From Escherichia phage UoN_LG358_1, in the sequence record OK570374: a stretch of DNA of 64,000 nt; one strand, 5' to 3'. A program made the translations under genes and the position numbers. Below, in pieces: positions 2,859 to 58,516 of the stretch. The notes below the pieces were generated by a model. The model did not search any database. It was not told the origin of the DNA and saw only the letters and a program-made list of their open reading frames with translations. Each line of letters opens with the position of its first letter. Position 1 is the stretch's first letter.

Positions 2859-3386
2859 TTATTCACTCATCCAGACCTTGCGAGGAGCCGCATCATTACC
2901 CATAACCATTTCAAAAAGTTCTTTCCAATTTGGCGGCAATGACACTACGTCATAAACCGGTTGCTGAATAACTCGTTCATATTCATCTTCTTCCAAAGAA
3001 CCAAGTCCTTTGATGTAACGAAGTTTCCATCCAGCAAGTTTATCTTTTTCAGCTTCATATTCGGCGGCATTGTAATACCATTTTTGTTCAGAGCCCTTTG
3101 ACATAATAATCACTGGGGTTTTAACAAACCGAATACGTCCTTCTTCGAACAATTTCGGCCAATTAGCAAAGAACGCTAGCAGGCTTGGATAAATTGACCC
3201 TGTGCCAAATATCTCTATTGTGAGGTATATCAATGATTAGCCCGAAGGCTAACCATCAACATCAGCATCAGTCATGATGGCAATGTTTTTATAATTCAAA
3301 GAAGAAGTTGATGTACGACGTACAATTGTCTGGGCTTTATATGATTTCATATCAATTTCAGTTTCTTTAACTTTAGCAAATTTCAT
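2859..3386 (-). CDS. 60: DNA topoisomerase II small subunit gp60, interrupted by a translational-bypass coding gap (about 3204..3251)
   Basis: N-terminal 45 codons MKFAKVKETEIDMKSYKAQTIVRRTSTSSLNYKNIAIMTDADVDG end at GGT then TAG (3251..3249), followed by UAGCC-UUCG-GGCUA hairpin; same-frame C-terminal segment ...TGSIYPSLLAFFANWPKLFEEGRIRFVKTPVII...YIKGLGSL...NWKELFEM matches T4 gp60 on both sides of its 50-nt hop. Confidence 0.7.
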
Positions 3387-4086
3387 TTAAAACCTCATAA
3401 AATTTTTCATCAGGAGTCCAACCGTTTTTAAACTGATTGAACGCGATTTTGAACAGTTTCGTTTTGATAGTTATATTATTAACCGTTTTCCATTTAGCAA
3501 TTCCGGTTTTCTTATAACTAACTGGGTCATAAACGTTAGCATACCAATCATAAAGGGACGGAATCAACTTAACTGCGTCTGGATTGGTTTTAGATTTGTT
3601 ATACCAAGGTTTAGATTTTTCAAGGGCGGCTGCTACTTTTGTAGCGTTTAACGTGTTACCAACTCCGCATAAACCAAGGTCCTTTATTAAAGGGTCGTCC
3701 GTTCTTAGTCTATAGGTTGTGTTATCTTTATCCTTGTAAACTCCGTATCCTTTCACACCTTCAAATTTTCTTCCGTAATTTACGCCAACCCAATCTTCTT
3801 CAGTGTATTCGCCTTTCGTCAGTAATCGACATTCTCCAGTTTCTTTATTTCTAAGTAAAATTTTGTCACGCATGAACTCAGCAGACCAATCTGAAATCAT
3901 ATTAACATAATTTTTCCTGGCTATTTCATAAAGTTTAGAACGAAATATTGTTCCAGAATTCATTATCCGGTTCAAAGCATAAGACATTTCTTTGTTTTTA
4001 TGAATTTTAAACAATAACCAGTGCGCAATAAAATGTTCGCGATATGTCAATTTTACCAAATTATCTGAAGTATCTAATCCACCCAT
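3373..4086 (-). CDS. mobA: HNH homing endonuclease (MobA-like), inserted between topoisomerase genes 39 and 60
   Basis: 237-aa ORF; HNH signature HHILPRSMGGLDTSDNLVKL...EHFIAHWLL begins in the in-frame stretch upstream of the first ATG (up to 4167), so the true start is uncertain. Confidence 0.6.
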   Translation of the reverse strand: MGGLDTSDNLVKLTYREHFIAHWLLFKIHKNKEMSYALNRIMNSGTIFRSKLYEIARKNYVNMISDWSAEFMRDKILLRNKETGECRLLTKGEYTEEDWVGVNYGRKFEGVKGYGVYKDKDNTTYRLRTDDPLIKDLGLCGVGNTLNATKVAAALEKSKPWYNKSKTNPDAVKLIPSLYDWYANVYDPVSYKKTGIAKWKTVNNITIKTKLFKIAFNQFKNGWTPDEKFYEVLNEIC

Positions 4087-4167
4087 GCTTCTTGGAAGTA
4101 TATGATGAATTTCTCCTTTAACCGGCGGAACCCTGGTTTTACCCCGGGAAATTAGTTTTTCTATAAT

Positions 4168-5721
4168 TCATACTAAGTCTTTTACTTTTTTCCAGACGCC
4201 ATCAATAAAAATTTCGTCATTGATATTAACTACAATATCTTCACCGGCAACATTTACAGTATACCATTGTTCGCCGGCTTCAACTTCCGTGAATGGGTCT
4301 TCACCAATGACTAACCCAGTAATTGCACAAATATCAAAGATTTCTTTGTTTTTCAAAGCATCACCTGCAGACATTCCCCAGGTGTTCATCACTTTACCAC
4401 GTAATGGATAACCGCCATGAAGGGCACGGTCACGAGTATTAATTAGATAACCAATAGCAGAATCACCTTCTGTTAAAAACAAAGTTGTTTCTACTTTATC
4501 ATTACCATATTCGCCAGCTTTGATGTGTTTATGAACTTTAGCTTTGGCCGCCTTTTTCGCTGCTTTGGTTTCTGCTGCTTTCTCTGCCGCTAGTTTACGT
4601 GCTAATGCAGCTTCAATAATCGGCATTAAAATAGCATCAGATTTCATAATCTGATTAGAAATTTTCTTTGCATCGAGATTTAAGTGAGATTTAATTTCGC
4701 CCCATGGACTTGTAAGACGCTCTTTGGTTTGCGAGTCAAAGCGCAAGTTACTCATATCTCGAATAAACATCAACACAGTAAAACACTCTTTAATACGAGC
4801 TTTGTTTACTTCAATTTTGTGTTTACGTTTAATAGCCGGAATTAATTCATTAGCAATTTCGTCAATAACATAATCAATATGCGAACCGCCATTCTTTGTA
4901 TGAATGTTGTTAACATAAGTCATTTGACGAAAACCATCTGGAGAATTACCTATAGCCAAAGAATAATTTTCTTCATCAATAATGATAGCATTTTTATCAT
5001 ACTGCTTAGAATATTTTTTGAAATTACTATCAACTTTTTTATTGTTAAATTTAAATTCAATTTTTGGATAAACGACTGCCAATGTCTGTAAACGGTCCAA
5101 CATAATATCAAAATAAACATCATCAAAATTGTTCATTTCGAAATGGCTAAAATCTGGAATAAATTCTACCTTAGTTCCTTTATAAGAGGATTTTTTGGAT
5201 TTCCAAGAAACATTGTCAGAATTATTGCTACAAGAAACTGTTAATTCATTTTCTCCATCAGATGTTGTACCTTTAAACATAACAGAGAAAATATTAGTCA
5301 ATGAAGAACCAACACCGTTTTGCCCGCCAGTTTTACGCTCTTCATCAGCTCCAAAGTTTCCGCCTGCCTTAGTTTTCGTCCATGCTGCTACTGGACCAGG
5401 AATTTCTTCACCTTCAGGAGTAGTAACCATAGCCTGTGGAATTCCACGGCCATTATCTTCTACGGTCACTTTGCTTGTGGAAGAATCGATATTGACTGAA
5501 ATTTTATTAGCAAATTTAAAACTTGTACGGATAGCTTCATCAACAGAGTTATCGATAATTTCATCAATAAGTTTGAGAACGCCAGCTACGTATTGTACCC
5601 GCTTAAATTCGCCAAAAACAAAACGCTCATGAAATTCGTTAGATACACTTCCGATGTACATTCCAGGACGCTTAAGAACGTGTTCCTTGTCAGAGAGCAT
5701 TTGAATTTTATTTTCAATCAT
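4168..5721 (-). CDS. 39: DNA topoisomerase II large subunit gp39 (GyrB-like ATPase)
   Basis: 517 aa; MIENKIQMLSDKEHVLKRPGMYIGS... GHKL/TOPRIM motifs; length matches T4 gp39. Confidence 0.9.
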   Translation of the reverse strand: MIENKIQMLSDKEHVLKRPGMYIGSVSNEFHERFVFGEFKRVQYVAGVLKLIDEIIDNSVDEAIRTSFKFANKISVNIDSSTSKVTVEDNGRGIPQAMVTTPEGEEIPGPVAAWTKTKAGGNFGADEERKTGGQNGVGSSLTNIFSVMFKGTTSDGENELTVSCSNNSDNVSWKSKKSSYKGTKVEFIPDFSHFEMNNFDDVYFDIMLDRLQTLAVVYPKIEFKFNNKKVDSNFKKYSKQYDKNAIIIDEENYSLAIGNSPDGFRQMTYVNNIHTKNGGSHIDYVIDEIANELIPAIKRKHKIEVNKARIKECFTVLMFIRDMSNLRFDSQTKERLTSPWGEIKSHLNLDAKKISNQIMKSDAILMPIIEAALARKLAAEKAAETKAAKKAAKAKVHKHIKAGEYGNDKVETTLFLTEGDSAIGYLINTRDRALHGGYPLRGKVMNTWGMSAGDALKNKEIFDICAITGLVIGEDPFTEVEAGEQWYTVNVAGEDIVVNINDEIFIDGVWKKVKDLV

Positions 5722-10939: not shown

Positions 10940-11572
10940 TTAGAATGAATAAAAATCCAAATGATATACAGTATATGACGGAGATAAAGGGTCATACTGT
11001 AACTCTTCAATCTCCACTATCTCAAATTGTGTTCCAATAGGGAACATCCATTCATCTTCTCCATTGACCATTTCAAGTTTATCCAGTCTTTCATCAAAAA
11101 TAAAATCTGGGTCTATGCTGTGCATAAATTCTGTGTCTGGCGCAGCCAGAAGCATATTCAGTGCGTGCTCTTGATAGTTAAAAGCAAATGGGCAATTACG
11201 TAATGACAAAATAGTATGAGTACCATACACACTCCCTCCAGCGAATTGTCTTGCTGTGGAAAAATCTGATGTAAATGACGTAACTCGGTCATCAGCAATA
11301 ATTCTTCCTACAGCCATATTTTTCAACCAAGCTTCGGTACGTTTTGACACTCCTCTGTAGAGTTCAACTGGAACGTCAGAACTAATATGCTTACGTATAA
11401 TTTTGTCCAGTTCTACATGCAAAGTTTTGTCAATTTTATCATTCATACACTGCCAAAGTATGCTCTGTTCAAAATCACTGAACATCTTAATTTTTTCTTC
11501 ATACAATCCATAGAGATTGTTATCAACTATGTTACAAACGATTTCATTAAGCTGAGAATTTGTGTATAACAT
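10940..11572 (-). CDS. ADP-ribosyltransferase, ModA/ModB-like (R-S-E class)
   Basis: 210 aa; ELYRGVS (Arg), VTSFTSDFSTA (STS) and GEDEWMF (acidic) motifs in the order typical of mono-ADP-ribosyltransferases; T4 modA/modB position. Confidence 0.6.
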   Translation of the reverse strand: MLYTNSQLNEIVCNIVDNNLYGLYEEKIKMFSDFEQSILWQCMNDKIDKTLHVELDKIIRKHISSDVPVELYRGVSKRTEAWLKNMAVGRIIADDRVTSFTSDFSTARQFAGGSVYGTHTILSLRNCPFAFNYQEHALNMLLAAPDTEFMHSIDPDFIFDERLDKLEMVNGEDEWMFPIGTQFEIVEIEELQYDPLSPSYTVYHLDFYSF

Positions 11573-29764: not shown

Positions 29765-31446
29765 TTTTCCATTACCGTGAATCTGCCAACTTTCTTCATC
29801 TGAAGATGTTGCCCATAATCCTGCGGGTCATGGTCTTTATGGCTTATGATAAAGATATTACTATCAGTCATTCCATTGAGAATTGTTCCTACTCGCTTAA
29901 TACCTTCATTATCAAACGCGCCATCATAAACTTCATCAAGAAAGAGACAGTTAATTTTAACATTAGAAACTTTTTCAGCAATGTCTCGCCACGTGAACAG
30001 CAACGCAATATCAATACGAGCTTTTTCGCCTTGGCTGAATGACGCATAACTGAATTCTTCGCGCCCGCGAGATTTAATAGTTTCGGTGAATTCTTCGTTC
30101 AAAGTAAAGACATAATCAGCTTCCATAATTTTAAGATACTGATTAATCTGTTTGTTGAACATCGGAATATATTTGCTAATAATAGCTCCCTTGATACCCG
30201 AATCTTTCAGCATTTCAGTTAAAATGCCTCGATGATATTTTTCCATAACCATATTGGATTTGGTATCAACTATTTTATTCAATTCTTCGTTAAGCGTTTT
30301 AATCTCATCGGCATGATTGATGAATTCTTTTGATGCTTTTTCAATCGCCGCTTTTACTTTTTTAGCCTTTTCTACTGTTGAAATTAAAGTTTGCTTTTTA
30401 GATTTTATGTCTTGAGCAAGTTCACGTTGCGTTCTAACGTTGCTCTCATATTCATGCACTAGTGTCTCTAGATTGGCTCTATGACTTTCTAACGACTCTG
30501 ATTTATGTTTACATTCATTAATCTTATCGTTAATCTGAGTGACTAGAGATGACCCAGAGTCTAATTGTTGCATGCATGTTGGGCATGAACCTCCAGAATG
30601 ATACAAAGAAACAACCTTGTTATATGAGTCAATTTTAGACTTAATCAACAGAGTTTGATTACCAATTTCAGTAAACGCGGACCGAGGGTCTTCATCAAGC
30701 ACGATAGATGTTAAACGCTCAGTTGCTTTTTCAATTTCGGATTTGATAGAACGTGCTTCAGTCGCAAGTTCATCATACATGGTCTGAAAACGAGCTATAT
30801 TTTCTCCTGATAGCTTTTTCTGGCGTTCAACGTTCTCTTCATAAATTTTAATCTGTTGGATAATTCCGTCTTTCTTTGCGTCCAACACAGAGACTTGTGA
30901 ATTAATTTCTCTTATATGAGATTTATTCAATTTATCCATTTCAGCTAATGTAGAAACTTCGAGCAAGTCTTCTACTAACTTCCGCCGAGCTGGAGTACTC
31001 AAACCCATGAACGGTGTATAACCAGCTGTACCAAGCACAACTACTTGCTTAAAGCTGGAATAAGACATTTTGATAAGTTCTTCAAAATAGCTTTGAAAAT
31101 CTTTAACAGAAGCTGCCTCGTCCAGGCGAACTCCGTCTCGAGTTATTTCAAAGATATTCGGCTTTTGACCGCGCTTTATATAAAAATGCTTACCGTCATA
31201 CTCCATCCAAAGCTCTACTAACATATCTTTTTTATTAATAGAGTTTACTAGTTGTCCTTTCTTAATATCACGGAACGGTTTGCCAAATAAAGCAAATGTA
31301 ATAGCTTCCAGCATGGTACTCTTACCACCACCATTTTTGCCGGTGATGAGAGTTTTTTGTACCTTATCAAGTTGAATATCAATTGGAACTTGTCCAACAG
31401 ACATTATATTAGAATATTTTACTCTATTAAGTTTAAAGGTTTTCAT
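29761..31446 (-). CDS. 46: recombination endonuclease subunit gp46 (Rad50/SbcC-like)
   Basis: 561 aa; Walker A GKNGGGKST, coiled-coil middle with CPTC zinc hook, signature/Walker B at C-terminus. Confidence 0.9.
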   Translation of the reverse strand: MKTFKLNRVKYSNIMSVGQVPIDIQLDKVQKTLITGKNGGGKSTMLEAITFALFGKPFRDIKKGQLVNSINKKDMLVELWMEYDGKHFYIKRGQKPNIFEITRDGVRLDEAASVKDFQSYFEELIKMSYSSFKQVVVLGTAGYTPFMGLSTPARRKLVEDLLEVSTLAEMDKLNKSHIREINSQVSVLDAKKDGIIQQIKIYEENVERQKKLSGENIARFQTMYDELATEARSIKSEIEKATERLTSIVLDEDPRSAFTEIGNQTLLIKSKIDSYNKVVSLYHSGGSCPTCMQQLDSGSSLVTQINDKINECKHKSESLESHRANLETLVHEYESNVRTQRELAQDIKSKKQTLISTVEKAKKVKAAIEKASKEFINHADEIKTLNEELNKIVDTKSNMVMEKYHRGILTEMLKDSGIKGAIISKYIPMFNKQINQYLKIMEADYVFTLNEEFTETIKSRGREEFSYASFSQGEKARIDIALLFTWRDIAEKVSNVKINCLFLDEVYDGAFDNEGIKRVGTILNGMTDSNIFIISHKDHDPQDYGQHLQMKKVGRFTVMEK

Positions 31447-32275
31447 TTAATATCCGTCTGTCAAATTCGGCTACTATAGCTTGTAAAGAACTTGTTATGG
31501 GATGCCCGAGTTTAATAAGTTCTTTTGAAAATGTAGAATATCTAGGTTTATTCATTTTAATCCACTCTGTATAAAGCAAATCAAAATTTTGCCATTGATA
31601 CGATTTTCTTCTGGATTTTAAATGAGCCTCTCTAATTTCGTCATTCTTCCAACTTTGAGAAACTCCCAATGATAAAGATTTACGATAATCTAAATTTTTA
31701 GATGAGAGTCTAGTTGCATTTAAATGCTTAATTTTATTTTCTGGATTTTCAAACCACTCTTTAGTTTTCTTAGATACTAAAGACTTAAATTCATTTGAAT
31801 TTACTCGTTCCAGGTGAATTTTTAAATTATCGGAATTTTCAAACCATCGTTTGACTGCTTGGCTAATTTTTATTCTGTTTTCTGCTATTGAATAATAACT
31901 GGACATTTTGATTGAAATAGCCTTTGAAATTTCAGTAGAAACTTTTGAATATATTTTAGCCATTTCTTCAAATTCTTCAAAACTACATTTATAAGCAGTT
32001 TTGCTATTATTCATTCTATTAATAGCTTGCAACATTCTATAATCTTTAGTTTCAGACAATATAGCATGTGCAATAAAATGGTTATAATGTGTTAAATGCA
32101 CAATATTTGACGGGTCTTTAGCATATTCTGGAAAAATGGACTTTGGTAAAATATGATGAGCTTGAGTATGTCCTTTGTTTAACTTGGTTGAATTAGTTTT
32201 AATAAATTCTACATACTTATTAACGCCTTCCCATTGAGGGAAGGCTGCTTTTAATATAGTCTCAGCGTCAATCAT
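31433..32275 (-). CDS. HNH homing endonuclease inserted between genes 46 and 47
   Basis: 280 aa; HHILPKS...NIVHLTHYNHFIAH HNH motif plus repeated WFEN-type motifs in the C-terminal half; overlaps both neighbours. Confidence 0.65.
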   Translation of the reverse strand: MIDAETILKAAFPQWEGVNKYVEFIKTNSTKLNKGHTQAHHILPKSIFPEYAKDPSNIVHLTHYNHFIAHAILSETKDYRMLQAINRMNNSKTAYKCSFEEFEEMAKIYSKVSTEISKAISIKMSSYYSIAENRIKISQAVKRWFENSDNLKIHLERVNSNEFKSLVSKKTKEWFENPENKIKHLNATRLSSKNLDYRKSLSLGVSQSWKNDEIREAHLKSRRKSYQWQNFDLLYTEWIKMNKPRYSTFSKELIKLGHPITSSLQAIVAEFDRRILNENL

Positions 32276-41677: not shown

Positions 41678-41842
41678 CTCAATTATATAGCCAATATGTC
41701 CTTGCCCATTTCTTACGGTTTCGGATTTGAGTTTTAGTCGGCTTAGTAGAGAACCACCAGGAAATTTTATATCCATCGTCAAAATCAAAAATTAGATGCC
41801 ATTTAGACATCTGATTTGATACATACTTTAATTCAGTTTTCA
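41678..41842 (-). CDS. small hypothetical protein (54 aa)
   Basis: Hand-translated MKTELKYVSNQMSKWHLIFDFDDGYKISWWFSTKPTKTQIRNRKKWARTYWLYN. Confidence 0.2.
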
Positions 41843-41850
41843 TTTAAATA

Positions 41851-42270
41851 CTAGCTGGAAAAAGATAGCTGTTTTTCTAGAGCTCGAATATAATCCGCTG
41901 CTGCTTGCATTATATTAGCTTCATACCCATTAACACGGATTTTCGCGGCTTCAAGATGGTCTGTTATTGGTTGTCCGTCGTCAAAAAATCCTAAAGTAAC
42001 CGCTGGAAATAAATCAGAATCATATTCTTCGATTTCTTTAAGTTGATACATACCGTCTTCACAGTAAAAACACCAGAACCAACTATCGCGAGCGTTAATA
42101 TGAAGATAAGGGCCGTTTTTAATTTTGACAGAAGTGATACCGTCTTCATGGCCGTTTTCTTTGTCAACAGTAATAACTTTAAAAACAGTTCCGACTTTCA
42201 TTTCAGGAAATTGTTCCAGAAGTTCTTCATCGTCTTCAATAATTTCAAAAACTTTATTCACTAAACTCAT
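41851..42270 (-). CDS. hypothetical protein
   Basis: Track ORF (151 aa) with probable start at ATG 42270 directly after the upstream stop. Confidence 0.4.
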   Translation of the reverse strand: MSLVNKVFEIIEDDEELLEQFPEMKVGTVFKVITVDKENGHEDGITSVKIKNGPYLHINARDSWFWCFYCEDGMYQLKEIEEYDSDLFPAVTLGFFDDGQPITDHLEAAKIRVNGYEANIMQAAADYIRALEKQLSFSS

Positions 42271-54882: not shown

Positions 54883-55101
54883 TTATTTTTGTCCAGTGTT
54901 TTGTTTGTGCTGTAATACAGCCTTAACTTCACTGAGGTATTTTTCCAGCTTACGTTTACGTGTATAATCTGCTTTCGAACCGTATAGACGTAATTCTTCT
55001 TGAAGGTGCGAAATACCATGCCCAATCTCACGACGAAGTTCGTCCAATTGTTCTACAGTAAGATTACGAAGTTGCTTTTCGTTTAAATGCTGCATATACA
55101 C
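54883..55101 (-). CDS. hypothetical protein (rI.1 position)
   Basis: 72-aa ORF in track. Confidence 0.4.
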
Positions 55102-55142
55102 CTCATTAGTTAGTAATAGTATTTATAAATGTAGTACTATTA

Positions 55143-55721
55143 TTACATACCAGTTAATTCACACCAGTGTTTGCGGCAAAGAGATACATACTTATCTTCG
55201 CCACCTAACTCTATTGTATTACCTTCTTTCACAGCGTTTCCATTTTCATCTATACGAGCCACCATGGTAGCTTTTCTTCCGCAATGACAAACGCCTTTCA
55301 TTTCTATCAATTTGTCAGCAACCGCCAAAAGAGAAGCTGAACCAGTAAATAATTTACCTCTAAAATCTGTGCGCAATCCATATGCCATAACTGGAACATT
55401 ATAGATATCCACGATTTTACATAACTCATGAACATTAGCTTCAGTTAAAAATTGCGCTTCATCAACAAATACGCAATGAATATCTCGTTGAGTTTGAGCC
55501 CATTTGAAAAATTCAAATATATCCATATCAGGCGTGATTACATTAGCTTCTTGGCGAAGACCAATGCGTGACACAACTTCAGTTGCCGAATCTCTATCAT
55601 CAATTCCCGGTTTGAGAATTAATGTACCCATACCACGTTCTTTATAGTTATGAGCAGCTGTAAGAAGAGAAGCTGATTTCCCGGCATTCATGCTTGCATA
55701 GTTAAAATACAATTGAGCCAT
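55143..55721 (-). CDS. tk: thymidine kinase
   Basis: 192 aa; MAQLYFNYASMNAGKSASLLTAAHNYKERGM... P-loop and C-terminal zinc-binding cysteines; near-identical to T4 Tk. Confidence 0.9.
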   Translation of the reverse strand: MAQLYFNYASMNAGKSASLLTAAHNYKERGMGTLILKPGIDDRDSATEVVSRIGLRQEANVITPDMDIFEFFKWAQTQRDIHCVFVDEAQFLTEANVHELCKIVDIYNVPVMAYGLRTDFRGKLFTGSASLLAVADKLIEMKGVCHCGRKATMVARIDENGNAVKEGNTIELGGEDKYVSLCRKHWCELTGM

Positions 55722-55909
55722 TATAAGTCCTTCACTAAATTTTCCAGATATTGTTCTAGAGCATTTTCAGCTTTTGTTAATTTATCTGATAATTGATAAT
55801 ATGTTTCAGCGTCGCCATAATCAGAATTAATCTCAAACGACATATCTTTTTCCAAATCAATTATATCACTAATCATCTGAAGTATATCATGCTTTTGTTC
55901 CTTTGTCAT
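55721..55909 (-). CDS. hypothetical protein (tk.1 position)
   Basis: 62-aa ORF; ATGA-type overlap. Confidence 0.4.
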   Translation of the reverse strand: MTKEQKHDILQMISDIIDLEKDMSFEINSDYGDAETYYQLSDKLTKAENALEQYLENLVKDL

Positions 55910-56079
55910 GTCGTTATCTCATCTAAATATTTTTTAAACGCTGCTTTATCGTCATCTAAAATTTTACGATAAGTTTCCCAATCATGACCAGTAATTAATT
56001 CAGCTTCATAATTAATTTGAGAATTCAAAAGCTCTTCGACTAAATAAAGTATTTCTTTATTTTGCTCAGTAGTAATCAT
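55906..56079 (-). CDS. small hypothetical protein (57 aa)
   Basis: Hand-translated MITTEQNKEILYLVEELLNSQINYEAELITGHDWETYRKILDDDKAAFKKYLDEITT with ATGA overlaps at both ends. Confidence 0.3.
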   Translation of the reverse strand: MITTEQNKEILYLVEELLNSQINYEAELITGHDWETYRKILDDDKAAFKKYLDEITT

Positions 56080-56339
56080 ACTGGCTCTCCTGGTTCAATC
56101 CATTCTGGAGTATATTGAAAGAATCCTTCACCAACGTGATTCTTACACGTTTTGTTGGAGCAATATAACCACCAATCCCATGCATTATAAGGTGGAGTAT
56201 TCATCAGCCCGTCATTACATAAAGAAAATACTACGGGCCATTTACAATCTTTACAACGGTGTTTTTCTTTTATATGAGTTTGCATTTTAGCCATCCCAAT
56301 CCACAACAATAATATCAATGTCAGGAGTAAACATATCAA
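56076..56339 (-). CDS. hypothetical Cys-rich protein
   Basis: 87-aa ORF; probable start at internal MAKMQTHIKEKHRCKDCKW. Confidence 0.4.
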   Translation of the reverse strand: MICLLLTLILLLWIGMAKMQTHIKEKHRCKDCKWPVVFSLCNDGLMNTPPYNAWDWWLYCSNKTCKNHVGEGFFQYTPEWIEPGEPV

Positions 56340-56739
56340 TAATCAACTCAATTTTATTCCAATCACCGCCTGCGATACCGGCACCAATGCGAGGAATATA
56401 AATCACAGGCCTGAATAATTGTCTTTTAGCCCAACAATTTAATCCCTGGAAAGCATAGAGTAATGCACCATAATTGATGTTAGGACCTGGCTCGTATTGG
56501 GTATAAAGATTAAAGCAAATTTGACCACGTTCGCCAGTCGCTTGAGTGTAATTTCCCAATTTATCTGGGTCTGCATGCTCAGTTTCGTAAACATCAATTT
56601 CCAAAATAGGAGGATATGCCTTAGCTAGTTGTCCAGCTACTCCTGCACCCATTGTATGGAAACAATTACAACCGTGAGCTACATTGTGACCTTCTAAGAA
56701 TATTTTTACAATATCGCCTTTGATATATTTTTTAATCAT
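56287..56739 (-). CDS. macro-domain-like protein (putative ADP-ribose binding/hydrolase)
   Basis: 150 aa; GDIVKIF...NVAHGCNCFHTMGAGVAGQL and later RIGAGIAGGDW resemble macro-domain nucleotide-binding loops. Confidence 0.45.
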   Translation of the reverse strand: MIKKYIKGDIVKIFLEGHNVAHGCNCFHTMGAGVAGQLAKAYPPILEIDVYETEHADPDKLGNYTQATGERGQICFNLYTQYEPGPNINYGALLYAFQGLNCWAKRQLFRPVIYIPRIGAGIAGGDWNKIELIIDMFTPDIDIIVVDWDG

Positions 56740-57137
56740 TTTTTCACCATATAAGTTGAATATTCGTCAACATCATTATATACTCTAATAAAAAATGTAT
56801 CGCACGTTTTCATTATAGTTTTCGCTGTGTTATAACTATCAAATGACGCTATCAAAAACGATTGCTCTATTTCTCCTTTAGCGCTTTTCTCGCAGCCCCT
56901 GATATTAAAAGAACCAACGGGTATAACGACTTGGTCACCTTTATCATTATAATTATAAAACGATATACCAAGAAGCTCTTTAATTGGAATATAAATTAAT
57001 TCTACATTTCGTTTAAAAGAACCGGAAGTTTCAATTTGTTTACCGGTTAGTGCTAAAACCTCTTCAGGATAGCCTGGGAGTTTTTCCCAGGCATTCAACG
57101 CAAATGTAACGAATAATAAACATATTAATTTTTTCAA
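56736..57137 (-). CDS. secreted/periplasmic hypothetical protein
   Basis: 133 aa; N-terminal signal peptide MKKLICLLFVTFALNA. Confidence 0.45.
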   Translation of the reverse strand: MKKLICLLFVTFALNAWEKLPGYPEEVLALTGKQIETSGSFKRNVELIYIPIKELLGISFYNYNDKGDQVVIPVGSFNIRGCEKSAKGEIEQSFLIASFDSYNTAKTIMKTCDTFFIRVYNDVDEYSTYMVKK

Positions 57138-57454
57138 TTAGTTAATCCTCTCATGTATTGCTCTAATAATCTATTTCGGTAATCAAAACAGATTTCAGTA
57201 TTTGGAGCTTTATCACACAGATTATTAAGTTGTTTAGTTTTACGATTTATTAAAACGTTCCACTCCGATTTTGATTTAGATGCTCTTACTCCGTCTTCAT
57301 ACGCCCCGTCCAATTGCAAGGACAAGATATCAATACATTCTGCGTTTGTAGAACAAAATGATTTAGCGATTTTAAGCGATTCCTCCATATTATCACCAGA
57401 AGCGTTTGCTCCTGATATAAGCAAAAGACTAAGCACAAGAGCGATTTTTTGCAT
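57134..57454 (-). CDS. secreted/periplasmic hypothetical protein
   Basis: 106 aa; signal peptide MQKIALVLSLLLISGANA; four cysteines. Confidence 0.45.
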   Translation of the reverse strand: MQKIALVLSLLLISGANASGDNMEESLKIAKSFCSTNAECIDILSLQLDGAYEDGVRASKSKSEWNVLINRKTKQLNNLCDKAPNTEICFDYRNRLLEQYMRGLTN

Positions 57455-58002
57455 TATTCTACCTCAATTCTCAATAGTTTATTTGACTTTAGATAATATG
57501 CTTTTTCTAGGACTTGACTAGCATATCCGTTTCCAGATTTCCAGTTGTTCCCGGCGTTGTAACTTGCAATAGCTTTTCGCATATTACCATTATATCTATT
57601 TAACCAATAAGAAAGTTCAATATATGACCATGACGCTGAATTCGAGCGTTTATTCAACATTTTAATTATTTCAGCATCAGTCATTTCCCATCCAATTTGT
57701 TTCAATCTAGCCCGCATTGTTGGAAGATAGTTTTGAAACATTCCATATGCTTGGTGACCAGATTTTCCTTTGGTTTTCAACCCAGCGGAAGATTCTTGCC
57801 AGACCAAAGCTGCCATAATATAACCTAGCCCTTTATTATCATAGCGGTTTGCTTGTGTTTTATATTTGCCATCCTTTGCAAATTGCTCTCCAAACTGATA
57901 AGCATAATTCAGATTTTCGAGTTGGACATTACTGAAGTTGTGCTCGGACCCAAAGGCCATTGAACAAAAGGCCAATAGACCTACGCATAGAGCTTTTTTC
58001 AT
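57454..58002 (-). CDS. soluble lytic transglycosylase-like protein with signal peptide (vs.1-like)
   Basis: 182 aa; signal peptide, ALVWQESS (catalytic Glu region), AYGMFQ and YNAG motifs typical of the SLT domain. Confidence 0.55.
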   Translation of the reverse strand: MKKALCVGLLAFCSMAFGSEHNFSNVQLENLNYAYQFGEQFAKDGKYKTQANRYDNKGLGYIMAALVWQESSAGLKTKGKSGHQAYGMFQNYLPTMRARLKQIGWEMTDAEIIKMLNKRSNSASWSYIELSYWLNRYNGNMRKAIASYNAGNNWKSGNGYASQVLEKAYYLKSNKLLRIEVE

Positions 58003-58020
58003 GTTTACCTCATTTAAAAC

Positions 58021-58488
58021 TTAAAGATAAATTACGTGTTTGCTAGTTTTTCCTTCGTATCTATTTGTATTAACAAAAGCCATCCGACACTGCATAGAAT
58101 AAGGAGTAGAGAAAGTTTTACCAGGAGTAGGTTTTGAAACAGTGAAACCAAGCCAAAGAGTTTTGTCAGTGATTTCAAGGCGAAGAGGTCGATACTCAAT
58201 ATTTGGGTCTAAATTTTCTTCTGCATCTGGTCGTTCCGGGAGCTCAAGAAATTCATTAACTTCGACAACATGATTTGAAAGCTTGTGAAAAAGTTCAAAA
58301 ACATAGTTCTCGTCAATTTCTCGTTGAATGGCGCGGTCCAATAAATGCTGAGAATATTTTACATGAAAACCTGGAACTCCAGCGGATTCGCATGCTGCTT
58401 TTATTTCGGAATTAATTTTAGCAAATTCCGTTTCAAAAAGACGACGAAGTTTGTTGCGGCGGATGAATACTTCTGCGTTAGTTGACAT
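58021..58488 (-). CDS. regB: endoribonuclease RegB
   Basis: 155 aa; EVFIRRNKLRRLFETEF...FHVKYSQHLLDRAIQREIDENYVFELFHK... near-identical to T4 RegB. Confidence 0.85.
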   Translation of the reverse strand: MSTNAEVFIRRNKLRRLFETEFAKINSEIKAACESAGVPGFHVKYSQHLLDRAIQREIDENYVFELFHKLSNHVVEVNEFLELPERPDAEENLDPNIEYRPLRLEITDKTLWLGFTVSKPTPGKTFSTPYSMQCRMAFVNTNRYEGKTSKHVIYL

Positions 58489-58516
58489 TTATTTCTCCTC
58501 TTTATGATATAAGATT

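Follow-up and report, generated by a model that had tools for sequence, protein, structure and literature searches.

The ORF at positions 56287..56739 of the analyzed DNA (64,000 nucleotides, here referred to as the window) encodes a genuine macrodomain of the ALC1/TARG1-like class. Judged by its sequence and its gene neighborhood, the gene is the Gelderlandvirus ortholog of tk.4 of phage T4. An invariant glutamine was found at the position where DarG and TARG1 carry their catalytic lysine. The protein is probably a stand-alone macrodomain which hydrolyzes ADP-ribose from thymidines of phage single-stranded DNA modified by the host toxin DarT2, and it would do so with a Gln-type active site.

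Genomic location and orthology with T4 tk.4

The macrodomain gene is an ATG-initiated ORF that fills 56287..56739 exactly, stop codon included, and lies on the minus strand. The plus-strand frame across the same positions contains stops throughout. An earlier note, made from the sequence alone, had placed a macro-domain-like protein here without stating the strand and had quoted two loop strings for it. Both are present in the 150-aa translation, NVAHGCNCFHTMGAGVAGQL as residues 19-38 and RIGAGIAGGDW as residues 117-127. The gene and its neighbors are as follows:

55143..55721, minus strand: thymidine kinase gene (tk), synteny anchor
56076..56294, minus strand: tk.3-like gene (Phage_zn_bind), downstream; its ATG overlaps the end of the macrodomain gene by 8 nt
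56287..56739, minus strand: gene of the single-domain macrodomain protein (150 aa plus stop); orthologous to T4 tk.4 (adfM), corresponding to STP4a_108 and to the S16 'phosphatase'
56736..57137, minus strand: upstream 133-aa ORF, PHROG 4957, function unknown; signal-peptide-like N-terminus (MKKLICLLFVTFALNAWEK)
57134..57454, minus strand: vs (valyl-tRNA synthetase modifier), synteny anchor

T4 Tk.4 is 54% identical to the window protein over the full length (E 9e-62), and when the window was searched with Tk.4 by tblastn, in this one direction, the macrodomain ORF was the single match. T4 and STP4-a have a common gene order, namely rI.-1, rI, tk, three small ORFs (tk.1-3 in T4), macrodomain gene, vs, vs.1 and regB, with one extra ORF, the one of 133 aa, between the macrodomain gene and vs in the window phage. 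Both proteins have the same size, occupy the same slot between tk.3 and vs and share the same invariant residues, including Y-T-Q and H-G-C-N-C. They differ in loop 2, which reads GKGNW in T4 and AGGDW in the window phage, and the anti-DarTG2 phenotype was demonstrated in T4 only.

The stop codon of the 133-aa ORF overlaps the start codon of the macrodomain gene (ATGA), which suggests translational coupling. A Pfam search with the 133-aa ORF gave no match, and no counterpart is annotated at that position in T4. Within 54.8-59.2 kb a promoter and terminator scan found no excess of promoter-like sites (22 against 17.7 +/- 4.3 in shuffled sequence). In the vs.1 homolog (57454..58002, minus strand) the N-terminus is signal-peptide-like, and the protein contains an SLT lytic-transglycosylase domain (PF01464, E 4.6e-5).

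From 55000 to 58500 the sequence matches Salmonella phage STP4-a with 100% identity and S16 with 99.7% (Gelderlandvirus, Tevenvirinae), and the macrodomain protein itself is 100% identical across STP4-a, S16, UTK0003 and AKM_NP4. RefSeq labels this protein 'phosphatase', GenBank 'hypothetical protein'. Compared with STP4-a (NC_026607.2) over its whole length, the window consists of blocks of 97-99.9% identity which are parted by indels of approximately 0.4-1.1 kb, near window positions 3203-4298, 31383-32272 and 41777-42228. Because the identity is incomplete and the indels are of kilobase scale, the window represents either a close Gelderlandvirus relative of STP4-a or a mosaic.

Published role of tk.4 in T4

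When a T4 transposon library was grown on a host expressing DarTG2, tk.4 was the single significant hit, and a clean deletion of the gene sensitized T4 to DarTG2; it was renamed adfM, 'anti-DarT factor macrodomain' (bioRxiv 10.1101/2025.11.20.689424, preprint, November 2025). The preprint presents genetics without biochemistry and argues from the structural similarity to DarG of M. tuberculosis. T4 lacking both adfA and adfN remains resistant to DarTG2, and a further factor had been predicted from this (PMC11825919). The earlier note had suggested that the macrodomain could reverse DarT-type ADP-ribosylation of DNA, and this idea gains support from the orthology with tk.4 together with the published deletion phenotype. 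Two points weigh against transferring it: the evidence for T4 consists of genetics reported in a preprint, and the identity to the T4 protein is only 54%.

A tblastn search of the window (E <= 1e-3) gave no match for AdfA (61.2), AdfN (30.3), Alt or a second DarG-type macrodomain. No homolog of 61.2 was detected at this threshold although the primase/spackle region lies inside the window. The counterparts of 30.3 and alt lie far away in T4, so they are possibly located outside the window.

Family membership, fold and class

Among 50,697 phage records, tblastn detected homologs of the macrodomain protein in 2,712, with E values as low as 5e-97, and the protein matched PHROG 335 with an E value of 3.6e-61. 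As a single sequence it scored 22.9 bits against the Pfam Macro model (PF01661; cutoff 22, E 8.4e-5), which is above the threshold but marginal. The profile of the Tk.4 family recognized solved macrodomains, namely BT1257 (E 4e-19), TARG1 (1e-15), SCO6735 (4e-15) and Poa1p (3e-14), and the two DarG macrodomains only with E values of 2e-11 and 1.5e-10. The macro-domain call of the earlier note is borne out by these values.

The AlphaFold model, calculated from an alignment of 76 homologs with the T4 row left out, reached a mean pLDDT of 96.1 and a pTM of 0.90. It displays the three-layer alpha/beta/alpha fold with a central mixed beta-sheet. In the PDB the best Foldseek match was TARG1 (E 6.6e-11, TM 0.80), followed by Poa1p, BT1257 and the DarG macrodomains. 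The comparison with MacroD/DarG-type domains that had been proposed as a check has thus returned a macro fold and not an unrelated one. By sequence as well as by structure the nearest neighbors are TARG1, DarG, SCO6735/BT1257 and Poa1p and not the MacroD, PARG or macroH2A types. The residues of the macro-superfamily loops (N25, M30-G31-A32-G33 and I118-G119-A120-G121...G124-G125) show no or hardly any variation.

Active-site residues

Three segments of the protein make up the putative active site:

56635..56676, minus strand: loop 1, H22-A35 (HGCNCFHTMGAGVA), with family-invariant H22, G23, N25, C26, M30, G33 and A35
56497..56511, minus strand: N77-L78-Y79-T80-Q81, with Q81 in the catalytic-Lys position according to HMM and hhalign alignments
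56359..56394, minus strand: loop 2, P116-W127 (PRIGAGIAGGDW), diphosphate-binding Gly-rich loop; A123 replaces D125 of TARG1

The invariant columns of loop 1 were scored among 76-77 homologs, and N25 aligned with N23 of the PhiKZ AdfM, N22 of T. aquaticus DarG and N27 of SCO6735. The string PRIGxGxAGGxW of loop 2 is common to BT1257 and SCO6735. In every alignment made, Q81 fell into the column of the catalytic lysine of TARG1 (K84), T. aquaticus DarG (K80) and the PhiKZ AdfM (K78). SCO6735 (Q85) and BT1257 likewise carry a glutamine there.

Q81 was invariant in 76 phage and metagenome homologs and in all 80 bacterial homologs examined. The same 76 sequences showed N77, Y79, T80, D49 and G62 to be invariant as well; among the bacterial homologs (n=80, 35-45% identity) this also applied to N77, Y79, D49 and G62, while T80 was found in 78 of 80. 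None of these six positions was part of the patterns used to find the bacterial loci. We predict from these alignments that Q81 is essential and that active-site reasoning based on DarG is not transferable to this family. The gene family has already been described and the idea of the earlier note is largely right; the residual novelty lies in the two lineages behind the name AdfM (see below) and in the glutamine at the catalytic position of the Tk.4 clade, of which we found no mention in the cited literature.

Comparison with DarG and SCO6735

DarG, represented here by the T. aquaticus (5M31/5M3E) and M. tuberculosis (5M3I) structures, consists of approximately 330-340 aa in two domains, the C-terminal one binding DarT, whereas the phage protein has 150 aa in one domain. 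Against the NCBIfam DarG model NF048014 (338 positions) the latter scored 16.3 with a cutoff of 250, and PADLOC returned weak DarG-model matches only. No DarT2 homolog was detected in the 64-kb window (best E 0.33), and the gene is not located beside a DarT (DUF4433) gene. Membership in DarG was rejected on the grounds of the Gln in place of Lys, the missing C-terminal domain, the lack of a DarT neighbor and the low NCBIfam score.

SCO6735 of Streptomyces coelicolor (PDB 5E3B) and BT1257 of Bacteroides (PDB 2FG1/2AFC) share with the phage protein the Gln at the catalytic-Lys position, the H-x-C-N string and the PRIGxGxAGGxW loop. The identity amounts to only 24-27% (approximately 24% for SCO6735), the relatives are basic (pI 8.7-9.6) where the phage protein has a predicted pI of 5.2, and they read I-G-Q where the phage protein reads Y-T-Q. 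Furthermore, the DNA-contacting K34 of SCO6735 corresponds to Ala32, and the loop that follows Q81 lacks Lys and is shorter by 5-6 residues, so that the combination of Lys34/Lys89 and an extended mobile loop is absent. On these sequence differences the phage protein is not regarded as an SCO6735 ortholog. The replaced K34 and the missing longer, Lys-bearing mobile loop also count against a DarT2-directed hydrolase, as does the absence of the catalytic Lys of DarG and TARG1.

As to the catalytic Lys, SCO6735 is informative. It strips thymidine-linked ADP-ribose from DarT-modified ssDNA better than DarG or TARG1 and rescues DarT toxicity, and its variants Q85A and Q85E lose all activity (PMC9411070). 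A Lys-independent mechanism was proposed in which the Gln serves to position the distal ribose and the acting water is held by the backbone (PMC9411070). With this Gln-type precedent the missing Lys is therefore no argument against an anti-DarT2 hydrolase activity. The catalytic mechanism of the Tk.4 type is predicted, by analogy, to differ from that of DarG.

SCO6735 shows two further properties, and because of these both a broader eraser activity (discussed below) and a non-catalytic inhibition of DarT are possible for the phage protein. In the latter case it would bind DarT2, or bind and shield ADP-ribosylated DNA, without hydrolysis. Each of the catalytically dead variants SCO6735 Q85A, DarG K80A and TARG1 K84A inhibits DarT in vitro, SCO6735 most strongly (PMC9411070), and the missing canonical Lys would fit such a role. 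However, phage and bacterial homologs with identities of 35-45% keep Q81, N25, H22 and the two Gly loops without variation. Such a pattern is more readily explained by the active site of an enzyme, since a surface that binds the toxin would co-vary with the diverse DarTs. DarG's DarT-binding domain is, moreover, absent from the single-domain phage protein. We consider a purely non-catalytic antagonist rather improbable.

Comparison with TARG1 and Poa1p

Human TARG1/OARD1 (PDB 4J5R/4J5S) resembles the phage protein in its length, in the PRIGxG loop and in the Thr before the catalytic position. Its catalytic dyad K84/D125 is replaced by Q81/A123, and the identity is 21%.

Yeast Poa1p (PDB 6LFQ), from which the label 'phosphatase' originates, was the best single-sequence match in the PDB (E 3e-8) and has the H-x-C-N-C string in common with the phage protein. 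Of the Poa1p residues mutated in PDB entries, H23 corresponds to H22, S30 to T29 and F152 to A123. The substrate of Poa1p is a free metabolite, ADP-ribose-1''-phosphate. The phage protein could accordingly be imagined as a Poa1p-like ADP-ribose-1''-phosphate phosphatase or as an O-acetyl-ADP-ribose deacetylase that clears NAD-derived by-products; the T4 record mentions an 'A1pp phosphatase motif' and homologs are labeled OAADPr deacetylase by JGI. These labels, on which the reading is based, are transferred from the domain. Poa1p carries a Ser in place of the invariant Gln81, an insertion of approximately 25 residues before loop 2 and the divergent loop 2 INSGIFGVPW. Additionally, the family profile ranks BT1257, TARG1 and SCO6735 above Poa1p, and the knockout phenotype in T4 is defense-specific. 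We know of no Tpt1/KptA-type source of ADP-ribose-1''-phosphate in a T4-type infection, which counts against this role as well. Such a metabolite hydrolase is very unlikely in our view.

Two lineages named AdfM

The name AdfM was independently given to gp104 of phage PhiKZ (Cell Reports 2026, PMC13309987). In vitro gp104 strips the ADP-ribose attached by DarT2 from the TNTC motif, the exchange N23A lowers this activity, and its residues N23 and K78 correspond to N22 and K80 of T. aquaticus DarG (PMC13309987). The profile of the gp104 family matched the DarG macrodomains with E values of 2.7e-52 and 1.3e-51. Between the Tk.4 and gp104 families hhalign gave a probability of 99.1% with an identity of 17%, and a BLASTP comparison of the STP4-a protein with gp104 produced a match of 23 residues only. 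PhiKZ gp104 and DarG contain FPTK(x)W with the catalytic Lys where YTQ is found here, and PPLG instead of PRIG. Going by these alignments, the name AdfM covers two macrodomain lineages: the PhiKZ gp104 of the DarG clade, which is Lys-type, and the T4 Tk.4, which is Gln-type.

The acidic pI of the window protein might be held against a DNA substrate, yet this argument was rejected, since the biochemically active PhiKZ AdfM is equally acidic (pI 5.05).

As a tentative proposal, to which we give somewhat less than an even chance, the Tk.4 clade may form a Gln-type lineage of its own, with BT1257, SCO6735 and Poa1p as its nearest neighbors. The T-evens would then have recruited a non-DarG, Lys-independent 'genome-guardian' macrodomain, maybe with a wider substrate range. 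If this were true, the range might include Glu/Asp-linked ADP-ribose on proteins, U-ADPr on RNA and a direct inhibition of DarT, as with SCO6735.

Bacterial and metagenomic relatives

A scan with one genome per species revealed 361 stretches encoding Tk.4-like relatives, which span Desulfobacterales, Rhodobacterales, Verrucomicrobiota, Planctomycetota and other groups. Among the best 80 of these 361 relatives no DarT2 homolog was present within 4 kb, and the same DarT2 query detects DarT on plasmids at 28-43% identity. An origin as a captured DarTG antitoxin was rejected on this basis; the Tk.4 clade gives the impression of orphan ADP-ribose erasers and not of DarG antitoxins that were captured. 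At the same time, the genomic context gives no independent tie to DarT, which is a point against the DarT2-directed reading.

Individual loci contain other genes of ADP-ribose processing. In two Ruegeria genomes (L020, 3478..4017 and 3998..4453; L082) a NADAR gene (PF08719, E 1.5e-37) overlaps the start of the Tk.4-like macrodomain gene, a pair that mirrors AdfN and AdfM of T4. An ADP-ribosylglycohydrolase gene (PF03747) is located immediately upstream of the macrodomain gene in three Undibacterium genomes (L046, 3073..5427; L057; L061), and in L046 and L057 a second one follows immediately downstream, resulting in an ADP-ribose-eraser cluster. A general NADAR or ADP-ribosylglycohydrolase neighborhood was rejected, since these arrangements occur in only 2/80 and 3/80 loci, respectively, and are anecdotal. 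In Vibrio aestuarianus (L084, 2900..4955) the macrodomain homolog lies just downstream of a phage-type integrase; the opposite strand carries small ORFs and a weak SecB-like ORF (25.8 bits, Pfam cutoff 26). This locus may be a mobile island with a toxin-antitoxin-chaperone-like module.

Four metagenomic homologs (P0082, P0079, P0107 and P0108) have a size of about 245 aa (P0082 247 aa). The precomputed Pfam list of P0082 contains Nudix (PF00293) and PF22327, which suggests fusions that might couple the release of ADP-ribose to its degradation.

Both the varied ADP-ribose-processing contexts in Ruegeria and Undibacterium and the apparent fusion to other domains in some metagenomic homologs would fit an eraser with broader or different specificity. 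Such an enzyme would act on substrates of other defense systems or of competitor ADP-ribosyltransferases, for example Glu/Asp-linked protein ADP-ribose, uracil- or phosphate-linked RNA ADP-ribose or an ADP-ribose-derived signal, and the reversal of DarT2 would be one of its activities or a side activity. SCO6735 and TARG1 also act on Glu/Asp-ADP-ribosylated PARP1 (PMC9411070), U-ADPr on RNA is reversed by TARG1-like macrodomains (PMC13036486), and Iyer and Aravind argue that phage macrodomains chiefly target small ADP-ribose derivatives (PMC9503650). On the other hand, the T4 gene is conditionally essential specifically with DarTG2 (10.1101/2025.11.20.689424), and the mRNA ADP-ribosyltransferase CmdTAC restricts T4 in spite of its tk.4 (PMC11618068). 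SCO6735 was reported to be inactive on 2'-OH RNA ADP-ribosylation, in a paper that is inconsistent on phosphate-end substrates (PMC11833690). Taken as the main function, a broader eraser activity is unlikely.

Relation to the ADP-ribosyltransferase of the phage

The earlier note had also pointed to an ADP-ribosyltransferase-like ORF, which is present in the window:

10940..11572, minus strand: ModA/ModB-like ADP-ribosyltransferase, PHROG 832 'RNA polymerase ADP-ribosylase', E 1.4e-43

Its product shares 38-45% identity with genes annotated as ModB in T4-like phages, the counterpart in STP4-a is annotated 'RNA polymerase ADP-ribosylase', and Pfam gave a sub-threshold DRAT match only. The presence of this enzyme had led to the suggestion that the macrodomain tunes it. 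As a regulator of the phage's own ADP-ribosylation the macrodomain would erase or adjust Arg-linked ADP-ribose or RNAylation set by ModA/ModB-like (and Alt) enzymes. An Arg-specific macrodomain, MavL, exists in Legionella, as indicated in PMC10951314.

We found no support for a functional link between the two genes. The macrodomain gene occurs in 2,712 phage records compared with 1,080 for the Mod-like ADP-ribosyltransferase, and Pseudomonas, Vibrio, Acinetobacter and Aeromonas belong to the ten leading organism names of the former but not of the latter. The genes are approximately 45 kb apart and not co-transcribed. Based on the distribution and the distance, a coupling of the two was rejected. 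In addition, the nearest characterized relatives, TARG1, SCO6735 and DarG, cleave Glu/Asp esters or thymidine linkages. None of the three is known to cleave Arg-ADP-ribose. A regulator of the phage's own ADP-ribosylation is extremely unlikely.

Proposed function and implications

In the reading that we prefer, that of a DarT2-directed hydrolase, the macrodomain would be expressed from the densely packed tk-vs gene block, which in T4 has an early region as its counterpart. Infection would free the host toxin DarT2 of the DarTG2 system, and DarT2 would then ADP-ribosylate thymidine in single-stranded phage DNA, leading to a block of replication. The macrodomain is predicted to bind the ADP-ribose by the Gly-rich loops MGAGVAG and IGAGIAGG together with the conserved Asn25 and to hydrolyze the bond between thymine and ribose, by which ADP-ribose would be released and a usable template restored. 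Catalysis would be Gln-type as in SCO6735, with the Gln placing the distal ribose and a backbone-held water attacking, and not Lys-type as in DarG, TARG1 and the PhiKZ AdfM. For the window protein we infer the same activity and the same role in a Salmonella host.

The annotation of STP4-a includes a dCMP hydroxymethylase and glucosyltransferases. The DNA modification of this phage would presumably shield cytosines and not the thymidines which are targeted by DarT2.

The label 'phosphatase' given in RefSeq is misleading and might be revised. By analogy with T4, the gene is most likely the anti-DarTG2 factor of the S16 group. DarTG systems halt phages via ADP-ribosylation of DNA, and genes that neutralize them help to predict the host range of phages, including the therapeutic Salmonella phages of the S16 group.
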